A stretch of DNA of 36,176 nt, taken from contig CAYUIA010000002.1 of assembly GCA_964444635.1 (NCBI GenBank), positions 1 to 36,176 on the forward strand, in the 5' to 3' direction. A program made the translations under genes and the position numbers. This document shows positions 2,448 through 29,302 of the stretch, in pieces. The notes below the pieces were generated by a model. It searched no databases, was not told the origin of the DNA, and saw only the letters and a program-made list of their open reading frames with translations. Source of the DNA: an uncultured Gammaproteobacteria bacterium. GTDB taxonomy: Bacteria; Patescibacteriota; Patescibacteriia; Magasanikbacterales; GWA2-37-8. Each line of letters starts with the position of its first letter. Within the stretch, counting starts at the first letter, position 1.

Positions 2448-4616
2448 TCATAAATCATCCAAATCTCGTAAAAAACTTCCCGGCCTTATTTTCGTCGGTT
2501 TGTCTATATAAGCGCTTTCCTCGGCTTCATAAACTACCCCGCTTATTGGATCGTTAAATTTGGTGGCGCTGTCTGAAATCAACGACCTATCATCGAGCAA
2601 TTCACTGTCGATTTCGCTCAAAAACATGCTTGGTCCACTCAAACTATCTCCCCATCCCCCACCAATCATTGGATAAGTTAAAAATAAATTCTTCTTGGCG
2701 CGAGTTATAGCTACATAAAATAAACGTCTTTCTTCTTCCAGTCCTTGCGTTTCAGAGAGTGATCTATCACTTGGAAACGCACCACTACTTAGGTTGATGA
2801 TAAAAACATTCTCCCATTCCAATCCTTTGGCTTGATGCACAGTAGACAAAACGATTTTGTCTTTGACCCCTCTGGCACTTTGCGCCACCTCCCCTTCGTA
2901 AGGGGAGGATGTCCCCTCCTTAACAAGGAGGGGTGGGGGGAGGTCTTTAAAATTTTCTTGCAAAGTCGCTTCCGCCAAAAATTCTTCTAGCTTATCATAT
3001 TTTTCTGCAAATGTCGCCAATTGTTTGATGTCGGCTTTTCTGTCTTTATAATCCAGATATTCATTTTCCAGATAATCTTTATAAGCCGAATCTAAAATTT
3101 TATTTATCATATTGGCTGGCGTTCTGTCGCTAGTTAACATTTCATCCCAAATTTTCAAAAAGTTTTCAAAACCCAATTGCGCTTTACCGCCCAAAATATT
3201 TTTTATTTCCGGCAATTCTTCAATATTTTGCAAACTGCGGACAAATTCCATGATTTTTTCCACAGCTGCCGGACCTATTCCTTCTTCGTGTAACAAAACC
3301 CTTGTCCAAGCCACCAAGTCATTTAAATTACTTACTATTCGTAAATAACTTAATACATCTTTGATATGCGCGCGTTCAAAAAATTTCATTCCCCCGCGAT
3401 AATCATACTGGATTCCGGCTTTGGTCAATTCCATTTCAAGCATCTGGCTGTGTGCGCTGGCGCGAAAAAGCACAGCGATTTCACTTGGCGCTACACCTTT
3501 TTCCAAAGATTCCACAATTTTTTCCAACACAAAACTCGCTTCCATGCTTTGGTCCATCTGCGGGCGTAATTGCGGTTTATCTCCTCCGTCTTTTATCGGT
3601 TTTAAACTTTTTTTGTATTGTTTGGTGTTATAAGAAATAATATCATTGGCGATTTCCAAAATTTCTTTGGTACTGCGATAATTGGTTTCCAATTTAAAAA
3701 TTTTTGCCTCCGGATAATCTCGTTCAAAATTTAAAATATTTTCTATATTGGCGGCACGAAAAGAGTAGATGCTTTGCGCATCATCACCAACAACCAAAAT
3801 ATTTTTATGCACACTGGCCAACTTTTTTATAATTTCCGCTTGAATTTTGTTGGTATCTTGATATTCGTCCACCATGATATATTGAAATTGCGTGGCAAAT
3901 TTATTTTTTATTTCTTCATTTTGCAAAAGCAGTAACCAATTGGTCAAAAGGTCATCAAAATCCATGCAATTGGCTTGTTTTTTGCGTTTTTCATACTCAC
4001 TCCATAAATTTTTTATCTGATCAGCTACAGCAAACCATTGCGGATATTTCAAATCCAAAACTTCTTCAATTGTTGTATCGGCATTTTTGGCAAAAGAAAT
4101 TATTCCTTGCAACACATTAGCCGAAGGATTTTTTTTGTCCGTTCCGGAATTAAAAATATCTTTGGCGCAAAGTTTTATCAAACTGCGACTATCCTCGCTA
4201 TCAAGCACGGTAAATTTTTCCGTATATCCTATAAAACTCGCATGGCGTTTCAAAATTTTATAAGCAATACTATGAAAAGTCCCCGCCCAAGGGAGGATAT
4301 TGGCGGTCTTCGGTCTTCGGTCTTCGGTCTTCGATTGTCCGTAGTCTGTAGTCTGATTGTCCGTAGTCAACTGTGGTCTGTAGACCGTAGACCGTAGACC
4401 ACTTACTCGCTCTATCATCTCGCCCGCTGCTTTGTTGGTAAAAGTCACAAGTAAAATATTTTCCGGTTTTATCCCTTGTTCCAATAGATATGCAACACGA
4501 TAAGTAACCGTTCTTGTCTTGCCCGAACCAGCTCCGGCCAATACTAAACAAGGACCTATCCCCATATAGATAACGGCCAATTGTTCTTGATTGAGCTCTT
4601 TGGAATAATCAATCAT
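2448..4616 (-). CDS. pcrA: UvrD/PcrA-family SF1 ATP-dependent DNA helicase (722 aa) carrying two in-frame repeat-element insertions
   Basis: Walker A AGAGSGKT, motif Ia TFTNKAAGEM, GTFHS, DEYQDTN, VGDDAQSIYSFRAA, TNYRS, STVHQAKGLEW, YVAITRAK. Confidence 0.95.
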   Translation of the reverse strand: MIDYSKELNQEQLAVIYMGIGPCLVLAGAGSGKTRTVTYRVAYLLEQGIKPENILLVTFTNKAAGEMIERVSGLRSTVYRPQLTTDNQTTDYGQSKTEDRRPKTANILPWAGTFHSIAYKILKRHASFIGYTEKFTVLDSEDSRSLIKLCAKDIFNSGTDKKNPSANVLQGIISFAKNADTTIEEVLDLKYPQWFAVADQIKNLWSEYEKRKKQANCMDFDDLLTNWLLLLQNEEIKNKFATQFQYIMVDEYQDTNKIQAEIIKKLASVHKNILVVGDDAQSIYSFRAANIENILNFERDYPEAKIFKLETNYRSTKEILEIANDIISYNTKQYKKSLKPIKDGGDKPQLRPQMDQSMEASFVLEKIVESLEKGVAPSEIAVLFRASAHSQMLEMELTKAGIQYDYRGGMKFFERAHIKDVLSYLRIVSNLNDLVAWTRVLLHEEGIGPAAVEKIMEFVRSLQNIEELPEIKNILGGKAQLGFENFLKIWDEMLTSDRTPANMINKILDSAYKDYLENEYLDYKDRKADIKQLATFAEKYDKLEEFLAEATLQENFKDLPPPLLVKEGTSSPYEGEVAQSARGVKDKIVLSTVHQAKGLEWENVFIINLSSGAFPSDRSLSETQGLEEERRLFYVAITRAKKNLFLTYPMIGGGWGDSLSGPSMFLSEIDSELLDDRSLISDSATKFNDPISGVVYEAEESAYIDKPTKIRPGSFLRDLDDL
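2865..2945 (-). repeat. 81-bp triple-hairpin repeat element inside the helicase CDS (27 codons, in frame)
   Basis: Its reverse complement aligns end to end with intergenic 11557-11636, with about 9 differences over 81 positions by hand alignment. Confidence 0.85.
4304..4402 (-). repeat. 99-bp heptad word-repeat palindrome inside the helicase CDS (33 codons, in frame)
   Basis: CGGTCTT x4, then ATTGTCCGTAGTC / TGTAGTC / TGATTGTCCGTAGTC, then GTAGACC x3 ending in CAC. Left-arm heptads are complementary to right-arm heptads in 6 of 7 positions. Confidence 0.8.
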
Positions 4617-5295: not shown

Positions 5296-6558
5296 ATGTT
5301 TTTCGAAACTCTCAAAAAAGACAACCAAACCAAAGCCCGCACTGGCATTATTCACACCGACCACGGGAATATTGAAACTCCCGCTTTTATGCCTGTCGGC
5401 ACCCAAGCTACCGTCAAAACCCTGGACCAACAGGACTTGCTTGATATTGACGCGCAAATAATTCTTGGTAATACCTATCATTTACATTTACGTCCAGGCG
5501 AAGATCTCATCGCGGGACAAGGCGGTTTGCATAAATTTATGAATTGGAATAAACCGATTTTGACCGACTCCGGCGGATTTCAAGTTTTTTCTTTGGGCTT
5601 ACAAAAAATAATGTCATCGCGAGCCACCAAAGGTGGCGTGGCGAACCCACTACAAGCAGATAACAATGGGATTGCTTCGACTTCGTCTCGCAATGACAAA
5701 ACCAAACAAGGTGGTTTGGTAAATATCGATGAAGAAGGTGTGACTTTCCAAAGTCACATTGATGGCAGTTCGCATCGTTTCACTCCCGAATCAGCAATTG
5801 AAATCCAGCATAAACTCGGAGCTGATATTATCATGGCGTTTGACGAATGTACACCGGACACCGCACCTCGCGAATACATAGAAGAAGCTATGCAGCGCAC
5901 CCATCGCTGGGCTGATCGTTGTATCAAAGAACATCAAAAAAATACCTCTTATCACGGCTACAACCAATTTTTATTTGGCATTATCCAAGGTGCCGGAGAC
6001 GAAGAGCTTCGCAAAAAATCCGCACAATATATTTCTTCCCTTCCTTTTGACGGCATTGCTATTGGCGGAGAAAGTATCGGCTATAATATGGACGCTACTA
6101 AAAATATTTTGGATTGGGTTACTCCGATTATTCCGGAAAACAAACCTCGCTACACCATGGGGCTTGGACTTTCACCTCTTGATCTACTGATTGCCGTGGA
6201 ACATGGCGCAGATATGTTTGATTGTGTCGCTCCAACTCGTCTCGCTCGTCACGGCATGCTTTTTTGTCATTGCGAGAGTAACGAAGCAATCCCACAAATT
6301 AACAAACATCGTTTGAATATAAAAAATTCAATTTTTATTAACGACCTCTCCCCGATTGATCCGAATTGTACTTGTCCGGTTTGTAAAAATTATACTCGCT
6401 CATATTTGCACCATCTTTTCTCCGCAGACGAAATGACGGGCATGCGCTTGGCAACTATTCACAATCTTTACTTCATGCTGAATTTAATGAAAGAAACGCG
6501 AAAAGCGATAAACGAAGACAGGTTTACAGAATTACTCAACAAGTGGAAAACGGCTTAA
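5296..6558 (+). CDS. tgt: Queuine tRNA-ribosyltransferase (420 aa) with in-frame repeat-element insertions
   Basis: TPAFMPVGT, LTDSGGFQVFSL, IMAFDEC, GIAIGG, Zn site CTCPVCKNYTRSYLHHL. Confidence 0.95.
   Translation: MFFETLKKDNQTKARTGIIHTDHGNIETPAFMPVGTQATVKTLDQQDLLDIDAQIILGNTYHLHLRPGEDLIAGQGGLHKFMNWNKPILTDSGGFQVFSLGLQKIMSSRATKGGVANPLQADNNGIASTSSRNDKTKQGGLVNIDEEGVTFQSHIDGSSHRFTPESAIEIQHKLGADIIMAFDECTPDTAPREYIEEAMQRTHRWADRCIKEHQKNTSYHGYNQFLFGIIQGAGDEELRKKSAQYISSLPFDGIAIGGESIGYNMDATKNILDWVTPIIPENKPRYTMGLGLSPLDLLIAVEHGADMFDCVAPTRLARHGMLFCHCESNEAIPQINKHRLNIKNSIFINDLSPIDPNCTCPVCKNYTRSYLHHLFSADEMTGMRLATIHNLYFMLNLMKETRKAINEDRFTELLNKWKTA
5613..5697. repeat. GTCATYGCGA...TCGCRATGAC palindromic (MITE-like) element inside the tgt CDS
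   Basis: GTCATCGCGAG...CTCGCAATGAC termini. Internal mini-hairpins CCACC-AAA-GGTGG and GAC-TTC-GTC. The reverse complement of the right arm (GTCATTGCGAGACGAAGTCGAAGCAATCCCA) matches the left arm of the 9639 copy and the half copy at 6266. Confidence 0.85.
6266..6295 (+). repeat. Half copy (one arm) of the same element inside the tgt CDS
   Basis: GTCATTGCGAGAGTAACGAAGCAATCCCAC compared with 9639-9675 GTCATTGCGATCCGCCATGGCGGAGAAGCAATCCCAC. Translated as CHCESNEAIP. Confidence 0.65.
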
Positions 6559-10427: not shown

Positions 10428-10491
10428 CGTATGTCGTATTTCGTATATCGTATATCACATACTAAATACTAAATACGATATACTATATACG
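10428..10491. repeat. Word-repeat palindrome (CGTAT words / ATAC words)
   Basis: CGTATGTCGTATTTCGTATATCGTATATC ... ATACTAAATACTAAATACGATATACTATATACG. Confidence 0.6.
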
Positions 10492-11556: not shown

Positions 11557-11636
11557 GACCTCCCCTACCCCTCCTTGCTAAGGAGGGGACATCCTCCCCT
11601 TAGCAAGGGGAGGTGTCACGAAGTGACAGAGGGGTC
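11557..11636 (+). repeat. Intergenic copy of the 80-bp triple-hairpin element
   Basis: CCCCTCCTT-gct-AAGGAGGGG, CCTCCCCTT-agc-AAGGGGAGG, TGTCAC-gaa-GTGACA, closed by GACCTCCCC...GAGGGGTC. Confidence 0.85.
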
Positions 11637-16322: not shown

Positions 16323-16790
16323 ATGCAAAAACCTCGCGAAAACGCCATTTCCTGGGACGAATGTTTTATGCGAATGGCCAATATTATTGCACAGCGCAGT
16401 AAAGATCCTAGCACTCAAGCAGGAGCTGTAATCACTACTTCACAAAACGTTGTTGTTGGTGTTGGTTACAACGGTTTTCCCAGAGGTATTGAAAGCGCTG
16501 ATTTACCTTGGAACAGAGACGGAGAATTGGCAGATACAAAATATGCTTATGTTTGTCATGCTGAAGAAAACGCCGTTTACAATGCCAATAATTCAACTCG
16601 CGATTGTAAAATTTATTGCACTCTCTTCCCTTGTAACGAATGTGCCAAAACTATTATCCAAAACGGTATTCGTGAAGTGATTTACGAAAGCGATAAATAT
16701 CACGATACTCCGAGCTGTGTTGCTTCTCGCAAAATGTTTGATTTGGCCGGAGTGAAGTATAGAGAATATAAAAGCCAACAAACGATTTAA
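16323..16790 (+). CDS. Deoxycytidylate (dCMP) deaminase
   Basis: CHAEENA and PCNECAK zinc motifs; 155 aa. Confidence 0.9.
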   Translation: MQKPRENAISWDECFMRMANIIAQRSKDPSTQAGAVITTSQNVVVGVGYNGFPRGIESADLPWNRDGELADTKYAYVCHAEENAVYNANNSTRDCKIYCTLFPCNECAKTIIQNGIREVIYESDKYHDTPSCVASRKMFDLAGVKYREYKSQQTI

Positions 16791-16797
16791 ATAATTT

Positions 16798-16873
16798 AAA
16801 GATTCAAAGATTTAAAGATTATACGAACCGTATAAAATCTTGTAATCTTGTAATCTTTCAATCTTACAATCTC
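16798..16873. repeat. Word-repeat palindrome (AAAGATT x3 / AATCTT x4-5 around ATACG-AAC-CGTAT)
   Basis: Read directly from the sequence, between the dCMP deaminase and kinase genes. Confidence 0.75.
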
Positions 16874-18397: not shown

Positions 18398-18447
18398 GGT
18401 AAAAGTTGAAAGTTTATAAAGTTATAAAGTTCATAAAGTTTAAAAAT
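18398..18447 (+). repeat. Direct word repeat (AAAGTT-containing 8-9 nt units x5), one arm only
   Basis: AAAAGTTGAAAGTTTATAAAGTTATAAAGTTCATAAAGTTT. Confidence 0.55.
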
Positions 18448-19321: not shown

Positions 19322-19831
19322 ATGAAAACAACTCTTCTCATGGCTATAACAGCTGACGGAAAAATCGCCAAAAGCGCCTCCCATTTCGCCAATTGGACTT
19401 CGGGCGCTGATAAAAAAATGTTTGTGGAAAAAACAAAATCCGCAGGTGTAATTATTATGGGTCTGACGACTTATCAAACTATCGGACGACCGCTTCCGGG
19501 ACGCTTAAATATCGTCTTGACTCCGGAACCGGAAAAAGAAACTTCTATCCCAGGATCTTTGGAATACACTTCGCAAAATCCAAAAGAAATCTTGGAAGAT
19601 TTGGAAAAAAGAAATTTTTTTGAAGCCATTATCGGCGGTGGTGCGACTATAAACGGATTATTTTTAAAAGAAAATTTGGTTGATGAAATTTGGCTAACTG
19701 TGGAACCGAAAATTTTTGGTGAAGGCCTCAATCTTTTTCGTGGAGTAGAGACTGATTTAAATTTAGAATTACTGGAAACTGTGCAATTGGATAAGAATGT
19801 GGTGCAGTTAAAATACAGGGTAATAAAATAA
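19322..19831 (+). CDS. RibD C-terminal-domain-type reductase, probable dihydrofolate reductase
   Basis: ITADGKIA, IIMGLTTYQTIG, NIVLT, IIGGGATINGLF, DEIWLTVEPKIFGEG. It starts 1 nt after the thyA stop. The DHFR role is inferred from context. Confidence 0.75.
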   Translation: MKTTLLMAITADGKIAKSASHFANWTSGADKKMFVEKTKSAGVIIMGLTTYQTIGRPLPGRLNIVLTPEPEKETSIPGSLEYTSQNPKEILEDLEKRNFFEAIIGGGATINGLFLKENLVDEIWLTVEPKIFGEGLNLFRGVETDLNLELLETVQLDKNVVQLKYRVIK

Positions 19832-19941
19832 ATCCCAATATCCAATTCCCAATACCCAATGAATGACCAATGTCTAAATGACCAAATGGTTTTAGGGCTT
19901 AGGGTTTGATTGATCATTGGTCATTGGGGTTTGGTCATTTT
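19832..19941. repeat. Word-repeat palindrome (CCCAAT/GACCAAT words / ATTGGTCA, ATTGGGG words)
   Basis: AATGACCAATG pairs with CATTGGTCATT, and AAATGACCAAA pairs with TTTGGTCATTT. Confidence 0.75.
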
Positions 19942-19971
19942 AAAAAATTTTTAAATTTTTAATTTTTATTT

Positions 19972-20687: not shown

Positions 20688-20776
20688 GGATAACGAAATA
20701 CAAACAAATACGAAATTACGAACCCAACATAATTGTTTTCGTTTCGTAATTACGTATATTTTCGTATTTCGTATCC
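20688..20776. repeat. Word-repeat palindrome (ACGAAAT words / TTCGT words)
   Basis: GGATAACGAAATACAAACAAATACGAAATTACGAA ... TTCGTTTCGTAATTACGTATATTTTCGTATTTCGTATCC. Confidence 0.75.
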
Positions 20777-27677: not shown

Positions 27678-28259
27678 TTATTTTCGCCCCAACATCTTCA
27701 ATGCCTCCTTCATTAGCTGTTCACTTGTTTTACCATTAGCTTGAAGTTTTTGCATTGTGTCTCTAGCTTGTATTCCGCTGTATCCCAAAGCCATCAAGCC
27801 TTCTACCACATCCCCTATTTCATTACTAAATCCTTGCCCCAAATTTGCACTTGTACTTGGTCCGACCTTGTTTTTGAGTTCTACCACCAGTCTTTCTGCG
27901 GTTTTTTTACCCATTCCGGAAACTTTGGTCAGATATGCGACGTCACTGCGAGCGATAGCTGAACTGATTTCTCCAACACTGCCCAAAGAAAGAATACGCA
28001 AAGCAGTTTTCGGACCAACCCCAGAAACTAATAAAAATTTTTCAAATAAGTTTTTTTCTTCTTTGTTTTTGAAACCGTACAATTCCATCGCATTTTCTCT
28101 GACCGCCAAATATGTCAAAATTTCGGTTTCCATACCTACTTTAAAAAACTCAGCACCATTAGTATTGACCAAAATTTCATAACCAACACCGCCGGTAGTC
28201 AAAACTATTATCTGCTCGCCATTGTTTTCTATAATTTTTCCTTTTATGAGAGAAATCAT
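27678..28259 (-). CDS. ruvA: Holliday junction branch migration protein RuvA
   Basis: MISLIKGKI...GGVGYEILV, helix-hairpin-helix LLVSGVGPKTALRIL and KVSGMGKKTAERLVVELK. Confidence 0.9.
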   Translation of the reverse strand: MISLIKGKIIENNGEQIIVLTTGGVGYEILVNTNGAEFFKVGMETEILTYLAVRENAMELYGFKNKEEKNLFEKFLLVSGVGPKTALRILSLGSVGEISSAIARSDVAYLTKVSGMGKKTAERLVVELKNKVGPSTSANLGQGFSNEIGDVVEGLMALGYSGIQARDTMQKLQANGKTSEQLMKEALKMLGRK

Positions 28260-28261
28260 AC

Positions 28262-28334
28262 TATTTAGTATAAAGTATATAGTATTTAGTATTAAGTATC
28301 CATACTTTATACTTAATACTCAATACTAAATACT
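28262..28334. repeat. Word-repeat palindrome (AGTAT/TTAGTAT words / ATACT words)
   Basis: Fills the whole ruvA / NIF3 intergenic gap. Confidence 0.75.
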
Positions 28335-29302
28335 TATTTATTTTTCTTATTACGGTTTACACGAATAAGTCCTCCACAAGTCAGCACTTCCACGCCTTTC
28401 TTTTCAAGCTCGTCAAGAAATAAATTCATTCCCAAAGAATCCGAAGAAATATGTCCGGCTACTACCACATTCATAAATTGCTCTTTGGCTTTGTTCATAG
28501 CATCGTCTTTCATATGCATAGTCACAATAGTACTAATCCCGGCTTTACTCAAAATTTCGTAAACTTTTTGTGACGGGTTGGTGCCACCGGTCATTTCCAT
28601 CAAAAATTTACCGACTCGATGTCGCGGATTGCCGGCAAACAGTTTCGGTCCGGCTCCGACTTTTTTTGCTTCAGAATATTCAGGGATTTCCAGTAAAACT
28701 TTTAACAGCTCATTTATAGTTTCCGGTTTCTTATTTTTCAAAAACTTTTCCACATATTGACTTACCAAATTATCGGTTACTGTGTGCGTATTCATCAAAT
28801 CAATTTGCAAAAGTTTGGCCATATCAATGACCTGAAAATGATTGGCCGGGTGAACACTGCGCCCTACTTCTTTCATTCTTTCTTCAGTTATTTGTTCGGC
28901 CAGATGAACCGGAATACCGAGATTTTCATAAACTTCAACCACCATATCCATCACTCCGTGCAAATCCGCCAATCCCCTGCCTATCGGATGGTGTGCCAAA
29001 ATCAAATCTATTTTTTTACCTCTTTCATTAAGTTGAGAAGCCAAGAGGATTTCCGCTGGTCCTATATCAATCCCGGCCAAAATTCTTTTTACCGGTTTCT
29101 TGGGGTCGCCCAGATGCAAACGACTATCCGCATAAGGGTTAAAAAGTCGTTCAGTATCAAAATATTTTTTATCTGCCGGTTTGAGATCTTCATATTCTTT
29201 TTTGACTCTACTGAGATATTTTTTGACTCCTTTTTCACCTCGCGGATCAGCTGAAATAGCCATTTTCAGAGCTGTTTCAAAGACTTGTTGAATAGTCATC
29301 AT
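28334..29302 (-). CDS. NIF3-family (DUF34) dinuclear metal centre protein
   Basis: LILAHHP and VVAGHISSD motifs. ATG 29302 or 29299 is preferred over the TTG at 29317. Confidence 0.8.
   Translation of the reverse strand: MMTIQQVFETALKMAISADPRGEKGVKKYLSRVKKEYEDLKPADKKYFDTERLFNPYADSRLHLGDPKKPVKRILAGIDIGPAEILLASQLNERGKKIDLILAHHPIGRGLADLHGVMDMVVEVYENLGIPVHLAEQITEERMKEVGRSVHPANHFQVIDMAKLLQIDLMNTHTVTDNLVSQYVEKFLKNKKPETINELLKVLLEIPEYSEAKKVGAGPKLFAGNPRHRVGKFLMEMTGGTNPSQKVYEILSKAGISTIVTMHMKDDAMNKAKEQFMNVVVAGHISSDSLGMNLFLDELEKKGVEVLTCGGLIRVNRNKKNK

Follow-up and report, generated by a model that had tools for sequence, protein, structure and literature searches.

Repetitive extragenic palindromes (REPs) are sequence families mobilised by RAYT transposases. 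Palindromic DNA is also found within genes, as in the Rickettsia palindromic elements (RPEs), which are placed in frame within housekeeping genes, at sites that the fold of the protein allows (PMC10969869). In the account of Mrazek et al. (2007) that is given in PMC4679880, heptanucleotide repeats are the commonest class of long simple sequence repeats (SSRs) in many genomes, are mostly intergenic and often placed just upstream of start codons, and polymerase slippage is proposed as their origin. In E. coli K1 the coding heptad repeat of NeuO, (5'-AAGACTC-3')n, is a phase switch, with full-length translation needing a repeat number divisible by 3 (PMC13001214). Here we describe a 99-nucleotide (nt) block of inverted heptad arrays in frame in the gene for a UvrD/PcrA-type DNA-repair helicase of an ultra-small Candidatus Magasanikbacteria (Patescibacteria) bacterium, at positions 4304-4402 of a 36,176-nt stretch of DNA (contig CAYUIA010000002.1, positions 1 to 36,176, hereafter the window). 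By analogy the block is best described as combining two known kinds, an RPE-like in-frame palindrome built of heptanucleotide SSR arrays. The reading that we favour, with a probability of about 0.55, is that a hairpin cassette rich in guanine and cytosine (GC) recently entered a permissive loop of the enzyme, in frame, as a selfish or neutral passenger resembling an RPE.

The likeness to RPEs is that of short palindromic DNA in frame in conserved housekeeping genes of a reduced genome, variable among relatives. RPEs are translated as additional stretches of peptide where the fold permits, as is predicted for the block. The block is of comparable size (99 bp, against about 100-150 bp), with two 19-nt arms (4305-4323 and 4382-4400) that are 89% complementary; its open reading frame (ORF) is intact and relatives carry an empty site. 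Its position appears fold-tolerant, judging from a modelled coil of low confidence and from other inserts in the same loop of homologues. The difference is that RPEs are dispersed families of about 150 bp with a conserved consensus and peptide, whereas the block consists of tandem 7-nt words and belongs to another phylum. With heptanucleotide SSRs, the short tandemly repeated repetitive (STRR) sequences of cyanobacteria and the TAACTGA repeats of Beggiatoaceae, the block shares 7-nt tandem units in three or more copies, and with heptanucleotide SSRs and STRRs a variation of copy number and word among close relatives (the A form against the B and C forms described below). Further SSR traits, an intergenic position and placement upstream of genes, are seen in the remaining word palindromes of the window and in those of other phyla. 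SSRs are described as direct arrays, however, whereas the block has two opposed, near-complementary arrays, folds as a hairpin and is coding even though 7 is not divisible by 3.

The NeuO repeat resembles the block in being a coding heptad array read in all phases, with three units giving seven residues and a frame that depends on length (PMC13001214). It differs in having 3-53 copies at the 5' end of its gene, where slippage acts as an ON/OFF switch; the block has 3-4 copies per arm and an inverted partner. REPs and bacterial interspersed mosaic elements are imperfect palindromes of intercistronic spacers, as are the intergenic word palindromes of the window and of soil contigs, but in the window the word differs from one palindrome to the next, and the ORFs scanned revealed no domain resembling a RAYT. 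The literature searched gave no description of inverted heptad arrays as a class, or of in-frame palindromic insertions in proteins of the Candidate Phyla Radiation (CPR), and nothing bearing directly on CPR repeat elements, which is not proof of novelty.

The heptad block in the helicase gene

The block, its parts and the flanking helicase motifs are as follows, the arms being named in the sense of the mRNA.

2448..4616, minus strand: host gene, an intact UvrD/PcrA-type superfamily 1A (SF1A) helicase of 722 amino acids (aa), assigned by Pfam and by its match to PcrA
4425-4445, minus strand: motif Ia (TFTNKAA) of the host helicase
4304..4402, minus strand: heptad word palindrome, 99 bp, codons G73-T104 plus 3 nt
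4380..4400, minus strand: 5' arm, (GGTCTAC)x3, encoding GLRSTVY
4332..4379, minus strand: centre or loop, with degenerate heptads TACGGAC and TACAGAC, a 14-nt direct repeat GACTACGGACAATC present twice, and CAGTTGACTA
4304..4331, minus strand: 3' arm, (AAGACCG)x4, encoding KTEDRRPKT and pairing with the 5' arm in 6-bp helices
4269-4283, minus strand: motif Ib (GTFHS) of the host helicase

The forward strand of the block consists of (CGGTCTT)x4 and (GTAGACC)x3 with degenerate heptads in the centre between them; read on the minus strand, which is the coding one, the order is (GGTCTAC)3, the degenerate centre and (AAGACCG)4. Tandem Repeats Finder reports an array of period 7 at 4304-4333 (4.3 copies, 100% matches), of which CGGTCTT x4 fills 4304-4331, and 3.0 copies of GTAGACC, again with 100% matches, at 4380-4400. 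Positions 4337-4397 are likewise of period 7, and all 99 nt form one degenerate period-7 array. GTCCGTAGTC occurs twice, within a 14-nt direct repeat GATTGTCCGTAGTC (4333-4346 and 4355-4368), and TGTAGTC once. Apart from the 14-nt repeat, these words had been listed in an initial annotation of the sequence and were found as it gave them; the local hairpin that it drew between GTGGTCT (4373-4379) and AGACCAC (4396-4402) is a perfect 7-bp stem. Folding, which the same annotation had proposed as a check, gives a strong hairpin. The RNA folds at -37 kcal/mol (z = -4.4) into three 6-bp helices with one A.A mismatch between each, and the single-stranded DNA has z = -3.1. The heptad words have no occurrence in the rest of the window, and the 12-mer GGTCTWCGGTCT, with at most one mismatch, is present five times in the window, always within the block, against an expectation of 0.07. 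The GC content of the block is 52.5%, compared with 38.4% for the remainder of the helicase gene and 35.9% for the window.

The ORF carries all UvrD domains (PF00580, 2.4e-78; PF13361, 1e-61). The match to PcrA (1pjr, E = 3.8e-109) consists of two collinear blocks interrupted exactly at the heptad block, where host residues 75-109 (35 aa) lie opposite PcrA residues 80-87 (8 aa). The spacing from TFTNKAA.EM..R to GTFHS is 41 residues in the host and 14 in PcrA, a net gain of 27, and an insertion of about 27 aa is seen against SF1A helicases and 19 close homologues. This bears out an in-frame insertion of 25-33 aa between motifs Ia and Ib, as had been proposed, with two corrections. The long spacing stands but the figure of about 38 counted to a tryptophan only, and the length of 33 codons is right for the block but not for the inserted length, the net gain being 81 nt. 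The translated region reads ...ERVS GLRSTVYRPQLTTDNQTTDYGQSKTEDRRPKT ANILPWAGTFHS, and the predicted insert-encoded peptides include TEDRRPK and STVYRPQLTTDNQ.

An AlphaFold model of the helicase, built from a 20-sequence alignment, has a core of moderate confidence, with a mean predicted local distance difference test (pLDDT) score of 66. Residues 78-105 are coil with pLDDT below 50, between a helix (61-78) and the motif Ib strand; residues 554-585, a second insert, also score below 50 and are without secondary structure. By these scores the heptad block occupies a loop at the protein surface, between motifs Ia and Ib, that is predicted to be disordered and permissive. The block is most likely translated, giving a hydrophilic loop of 27-33 aa without use to the enzyme.

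Two of the six frames across the block are open. When three or more copies of a heptad are read in all three phases, a GTAGACC array would hold TAG in every frame, and the actual 3' arm, GAAGACC, differs from the exact reverse complement GTAGACC at precisely the base that forms TAG. Stop avoidance may be the cause of the single mismatch per heptad; intergenic copies in soil share the mismatch, but the search pattern that retrieved them required it. As an explanation of the high GC content it was rejected. Weighted by the composition of the window, about 31% of heptads are stop-free in both orientations, so that stop avoidance alone does not explain the composition of the block, and AT-rich intergenic words that are stop-free both ways include three, CGTATAT, CCCAATA and ACGAAAT.

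Allelic states and the gene tree

Homologues of about 60% identity have a short loop, ...R(R/M)xxLTxxxxxLPW, at the site of the block, and the close relatives P0004 and P0006 are likewise short-looped (ERVGQLTSEKTRLPW). The empty alleles (P0004, P0129 and P0006) retain a loop of the form (x)QLTxxKxxLPW. The empty site that the initial annotation suggested looking for is thus present in sister genomes. All named close homologues of the helicase belong to Candidatus Magasanikbacteria (Patescibacteria/CPR). Three states of this site exist among the proteins that cluster, at 90% identity or more, with either the window protein or P0003.

State 1, heptad block: P0001 (the window protein) and P0122-P0125
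State 2, a single GC-rich hairpin, CCCCTCC-TCGGGCA-GGAGGGG, encoding NQLTKSSHHPSPLLGQEGIKLPW: P0121, P0126 and P0127
State 3, empty site: P0129

The helicase gene of the window is 95.9% identical in DNA sequence to that of P0121 and 94.6% identical to that of P0129. The block itself has three forms, which differ in arm copy number, arm word and centre.

A form (window and P0002): left arm of 3 copies, right-arm word AAGACCG
B form (P0003): (GGTCTAC)4, right arm AAGTCCG/AAGACCG
C form (P0005): right arm (CGAAGTC)4, right-arm word AAGTCCG

Over the empty site, forms A, B and C add 81, 66 and 54 nt, respectively, all multiples of 3 and all stop-free. The hairpin is strong in the A form (z = -4.4); in the other two it loses strength, with z = -1.7 for B and -2.4 for C, as decay without selection on structure inside the gene would have it. 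More distant Magasanikbacteria helicases (P0014, P0019, P0021, P0024, P0033, P0059 and P0075; lengths 668-822 aa) have many unrelated inserts, both in this Ia/Ib loop and in several loops elsewhere. Among the insert peptides are CHSRESGNPE, SFGRNDK and AGIQ...GNDK, which we take to resemble translated REP-type palindromes. These comparisons indicate that the heptad block is a derived, recent and strain-variable insertion, with a net gain of 27 aa.

A neighbour-joining tree of the helicases, with gapped columns removed, has the topology (P0006,((P0005,P0002),(P0001,(P0003,P0004)))). The empty allele P0004 is nested among filled ones, and the A form is common to two non-sister proteins, P0001 and P0002. 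The genes of the window and P0002 share 82% identity, whereas the blocks differ at only 2 of 99 nt (binomial probability about 4e-8); the longest difference-free run of the gene falls inside the block, and the conserved tract nearly coincides with it. Conversely, the window and P0003 are 89% identical over the gene but only about 70% identical over the block. This conflict requires that the cassette or allele moved laterally from one lineage to another, that it was gained and lost more than once, or both.

Related palindromes in the window and beyond

A detector of hairpins with arms of period 6-9 found five word palindromes in the window (at 4305, 10429, 16799, 19842 and 28273) and none in 20 Markov-1 simulations; a separate repeat search added one at 20693-20772. 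Two further in-frame inserts and five intergenic palindromes are of interest here.

2870..2945, minus strand: second in-frame palindromic insert of the helicase (site 2), about +16 aa (DLPPPLLVKEGTSSPYEGEVAQSARGV), a double hairpin
5620-5706, plus strand: in-frame insert of 29 aa (RATKGGVANPLQADNNGIASTSSRNDKTK) within the Tgt ORF 5296-6558, GC-rich palindromic DNA, z = -2.5
10429-10483, 16784-16872, 19834-19939, 20693-20772 and 28258-28336: intergenic word palindromes, AT-rich, each with its own 5-nt core and 2-3 variable bases

Helicase site 2 consists of CCCCTCC-TTGTTAA-GGAGGGG followed by CCTCCCC-TTACGAA-GGGGAGG, and the insert is absent from P0129, P0004, P0003 and P0002. The same family (CCCCTCC-N7-GGAGGGG, then CCTCCCC-N7-GGGGAGG) recurs in the window at 11568-11613, between the genes for a TrpS-type synthetase and a penicillin-binding protein; locus L173, where these two genes abut, lacks that copy. 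Its single-hairpin version is the insert found at helicase site 1, the site of the heptad block, in sister strains. The family is also listed at 889-909 of L174. The insert in Tgt is absent from the proteins of L001 (391 aa) and L007 (389 aa), and for L173 the length alone (384 aa) points to its absence. A further difference of 7 aa from L007 Tgt involves AIPQINK within CHCESNEAIPQ.

The initial annotation had likened the block to intergenic palindromes at 16798, 19832, 20688 and 28262. All four are real and share the architecture, three by the same detector and that at 20688 by the repeat search. The likeness does not extend to composition or words, the intergenic palindromes being AT-rich with words of their own. 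Four of the five lie between co-directional genes, in a nucleotide-metabolism cluster and a NIF3-like/RuvA pair, the spacers being dCMP-deaminase/kinase-like, DHFR/Tmk, Tmk/membrane-protein gene and NIF3-like/RuvA. The exception, 10429-10483, is between divergent genes, upstream of a Trp/Tyr-type tRNA synthetase gene; its position is kept in the sister genomes L001 (4468-4533) and L008 (4134-4188) while the words drift. At this site L007 has a one-sided array only. Folding gives z values of -4.1 to -6.7 for four of the five and only -1.75 for 19830-19945. A terminator and promoter scan at the intergenic palindromes revealed nothing exceeding shuffles, and the only Rfam match in the window at the gathering threshold is a truncated tRNA at 1-55, a gene on the minus strand cut by the window edge.

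Other repeats were noted in passing. In the window, AATCTAA x4.6 forms a heptad array at 202-233 and is followed by a GC-rich hairpin at 235-260 (GCTTCGCCTTCGGCGAAGC), and AAAGTTTAT x4.3 is a direct array at 18402-18446, at the dUTPase/ThyA junction. The words of the latter are related to 9-mers of the AAAGTTCAT type that form a palindrome between Tgt and its neighbour in L007 (9319-9383). At 1613-1924 L003 carries about 100 nt of additional inserted DNA, which belongs to yet a different palindromic family (...GTCATCCCGAG...CTCAGAATGAC).

Species-representative genomes scanned with GGTCTWC x2.7 gave at least 120 loci, a number not usable for cross-taxon frequencies; among the matches listed, loci span Bacteroidota, Acidobacteriota, Gemmatimonadota, Chloroflexota, Paenibacillus and archaea. 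A metagenome scan for the pattern of left arm, gap and right arm gave 40 loci, 36 of them unique, on soil contigs of 63-70% GC. The genome and metagenome loci together (1.04 Mb) contain 100 word palindromes of dozens of words; simulations contain none. Many soil copies lie a few nt at most from an upstream stop codon or just ahead of a ribosome-binding site and start codon; 11 are in sense and 4 in antisense orientation, and one is directly upstream of the gene for ribosomal protein L2. L060, from an Acidobacteriota metagenome-assembled genome (MAG), has six word palindromes of at least four different words in 8 kb. L012, L015, L029 and L023 are also heptad-dense, with abutting blocks of different heptads such as (GATTTGC)5(GGTCTTC)5.

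In-frame word palindromes are rare. One is in a membrane protein (locus L166), and another, with the words GGACTTC/GAAGTCC, occupies site 2 of a Magasanikbacteria helicase of 59% identity. In L038, a Vicingus MAG, part of the interdomain lipoyl linker of a dihydrolipoamide acyltransferase (E2; ORF 2554-3838 of the reverse-complemented locus) is encoded by the direct heptad arrays (GAAGACC)3 and (AAACTCG)3, giving GRPKTEDRSEKTE...KLETRNS. A protein search with idealised heptad peptides retrieved 17 proteins of 55-104 aa, none with a Pfam domain, and these are most likely ORFs called over intergenic repeats.

Inverted heptad arrays, or word palindromes, are a real class and mostly intercistronic. 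We also entertain, as a speculative and rather unlikely proposal, that they represent an unrecognised class of hairpin cassettes that crosses phyla and has its own way of arising and spreading. The imperfect pair (GGTCTAC)n...(GAAGACC)n, with one A.A mismatch per 7 bp, is found both in a CPR helicase of 36% GC and in soil spacers of 63-70% GC, loci picked for one word also hold dozens of palindromes of other words, and in the CPR lineage cassettes swap in and out of one protein loop between near-identical strains.

Origin and meaning of the insertion

Several questions bear on how the block is to be read. Is it genuine? Is it younger than the gene? Did it arrive as a unit or grow in place, and does it serve the cell? 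The block is genuine and no assembly artefact. The identical 722-aa protein is encoded on contigs of at least four separate metagenome assemblies (JGI 3300010351; JGI 3300025762; ENA ERZ27257409, k141_...; ENA ERZ795063, NODE_..._cov_...), and the contig names indicate different assemblers, megahit-style k141 and SPAdes-style NODE, which meets the concern over assembly raised in the initial annotation. Short-period repeats and hairpins misassemble easily and metagenome assemblies are the sole source here, but with the same product in four assemblies, homologous variants of the block in three further lineages and an intact ORF with every UvrD domain, an artefact or a pseudogene is extremely improbable. 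It is also very improbable that the block is the ancestral native loop of this helicase clade, precisely lost in the relatives. The tree gives this idea some support, since with the empty P0004 inside a filled clade one gain and one loss are most parsimonious. However, the empty alleles keep the loop of the homologues of about 60% identity, two precise restoring deletions are improbable, and the block is an outlier in composition and repeats.

We consider, then, that the DNA of the block probably was acquired recently, is not part of the enzyme proper and is a selfish or neutral passenger. Such selfish or neutral palindromic DNA would persist only where the protein tolerates it, and the surviving versions would be limited to stop-free lengths that are multiples of 3 nt. 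Heptad arrays may be made and resized by replication slippage or by template switching at the hairpin, and a cassette could be passed as a unit between related genomes by short-tract recombination or a hairpin-directed process. The same genome has palindromic inserts in frame at helicase site 2 and in Tgt, and word palindromes of like architecture with related words occur at site 2 of the 59%-identical helicase, in the L166 membrane protein and at the soil loci.

Several points weigh against a recently acquired cassette. Alignments of filled and empty alleles show neither a target-site duplication nor defined termini, and a scan of the 29 larger ORFs of the window revealed no domain resembling a transposase. 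Miniature inverted-repeat transposable elements are flanked by such a duplication; the arms of the block are inverted but are made of tandem heptads. RPEs are multi-copy, but a second copy of the centre or arms of the block was found neither in the 36-kb window nor in related loci totalling about 100 kb, which amounts to only a few percent of a genome that measures about 1 Mb, although same-word palindromes occur at the 36 unique soil loci. The claim of the initial annotation that the class can land in coding sequence and stay in frame holds as to presence in frame; landing, or mobility, is inferred, with neither a target-site duplication nor a further copy found. The open frame predicts that the insert is translated, and the near-identity of the window and P0002 blocks could instead reflect selection at the DNA or RNA level. 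Finally, a net gain of 81 nt for a 99-nt block leaves about 18 nt of ancestral loop that was replaced or is embedded in the centre. Net gain and possible retained codons fit local two-sided growth better than insertion at a single point. The alignments suggest that ancestral sequence may have been kept between the two arms, the gain being +27 nt to its left and +54 nt to its right, which would fit slippage and fold-back template switching.

In its full form this alternative is a purely local origin, with slippage of a local seed (GGACAATTGACTA), a second arm made by fold-back template switching, and later shuffling of the filled allele between lineages by ordinary homologous recombination, with no mobile element. 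We regard it as possible, though unlikely. CAGTTGACTA in the centre matches the ancestral Gln-Leu-Thr codons CAATTGACTA of the closest strain, P0121, at 9 of 10 nt (shuffle p about 0.03), and GGACAAT, present twice in the centre, matches the ancestral Gly-Gln codons of P0129. BLASTP and MAFFT both divide the insert into the left and right gains given above, each a multiple of 3, and the whole 99 nt is one degenerate period-7 array. Every intergenic word palindrome of the window has its own word, as expected for local genesis, that upstream of the synthetase gene is fixed in position with drifting words, and a target-site duplication is lacking. On the other hand, local alignment against shuffles gave p values of 0.2-0.9, and hence no significant ancestral-loop match, when the loop was that of P0004 or P0006 or the form was B or C, so the embedded loop, borderline for P0121 alone, is treated as a lead only. 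Nor does local growth readily account for a block of 52.5% GC in a 36% GC genome, for three states, including another GC-rich hairpin, at one site among strains 94-96% identical, for an A form that is near-identical across 18% gene divergence with a conserved tract approximating the block, or for the identical imperfect word pair in unrelated genomes.

It is improbable that the block is a functional element, whether a contingency locus, where adding or removing one heptad would shift the reading frame of the helicase and so switch a repair or mutator function on and off, as in NeuO, an mRNA hairpin governing translation or stability, or an adaptive helicase loop. Coding heptanucleotide arrays do give phase variation in NeuO (PMC13001214), the hairpin is strong, the block is better conserved than the gene between the window and P0002, and the soil palindromes of the same word, lying between a stop codon and the next ribosome-binding site with the orientation bias noted above, hint at a role at the RNA level. 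Yet each arm has no more than 3-4 copies, the differences between alleles are complex and not ones of copy number, near-identical strains dispense with the insert, the hairpins of the B and C forms are weaker, and disorder is predicted for the insert. The eight proteins of the window protein's own cluster (at least 90% identity) are all in frame, as are eight other aligned close relatives. We caution that the lack of out-of-frame copy-number variants among these proteins is a weak test, made on assembled sequences, and that the four P0001 contigs were retrieved by exact product and are in frame by construction.

A recently acquired in-frame cassette would extend Rickettsia-type palindromic selfish DNA, translated inside essential genes, to the CPR. 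Coding 7-nt repeats are usually thought to be excluded; they can persist if the arms are stop-free and the length is a multiple of 3, and they then create disordered loops. For annotation, such blocks inflate protein lengths and yield spurious small ORFs, of which the 17 Pfam-less proteins are examples. Inverted heptad arrays are an under-described structural class, abundant in the intercistronic spacers of several phyla, and if they do constitute a single cross-phylum class their action would be chiefly on RNA, between cistrons, and they would spread horizontally and now and then supply new disordered protein loops. The empty site, the heptad hairpin and the CCCCTCC hairpin, found at one permissive position in strains 94-96% identical, form a natural series suited to the study of how such DNA enters and leaves a gene.

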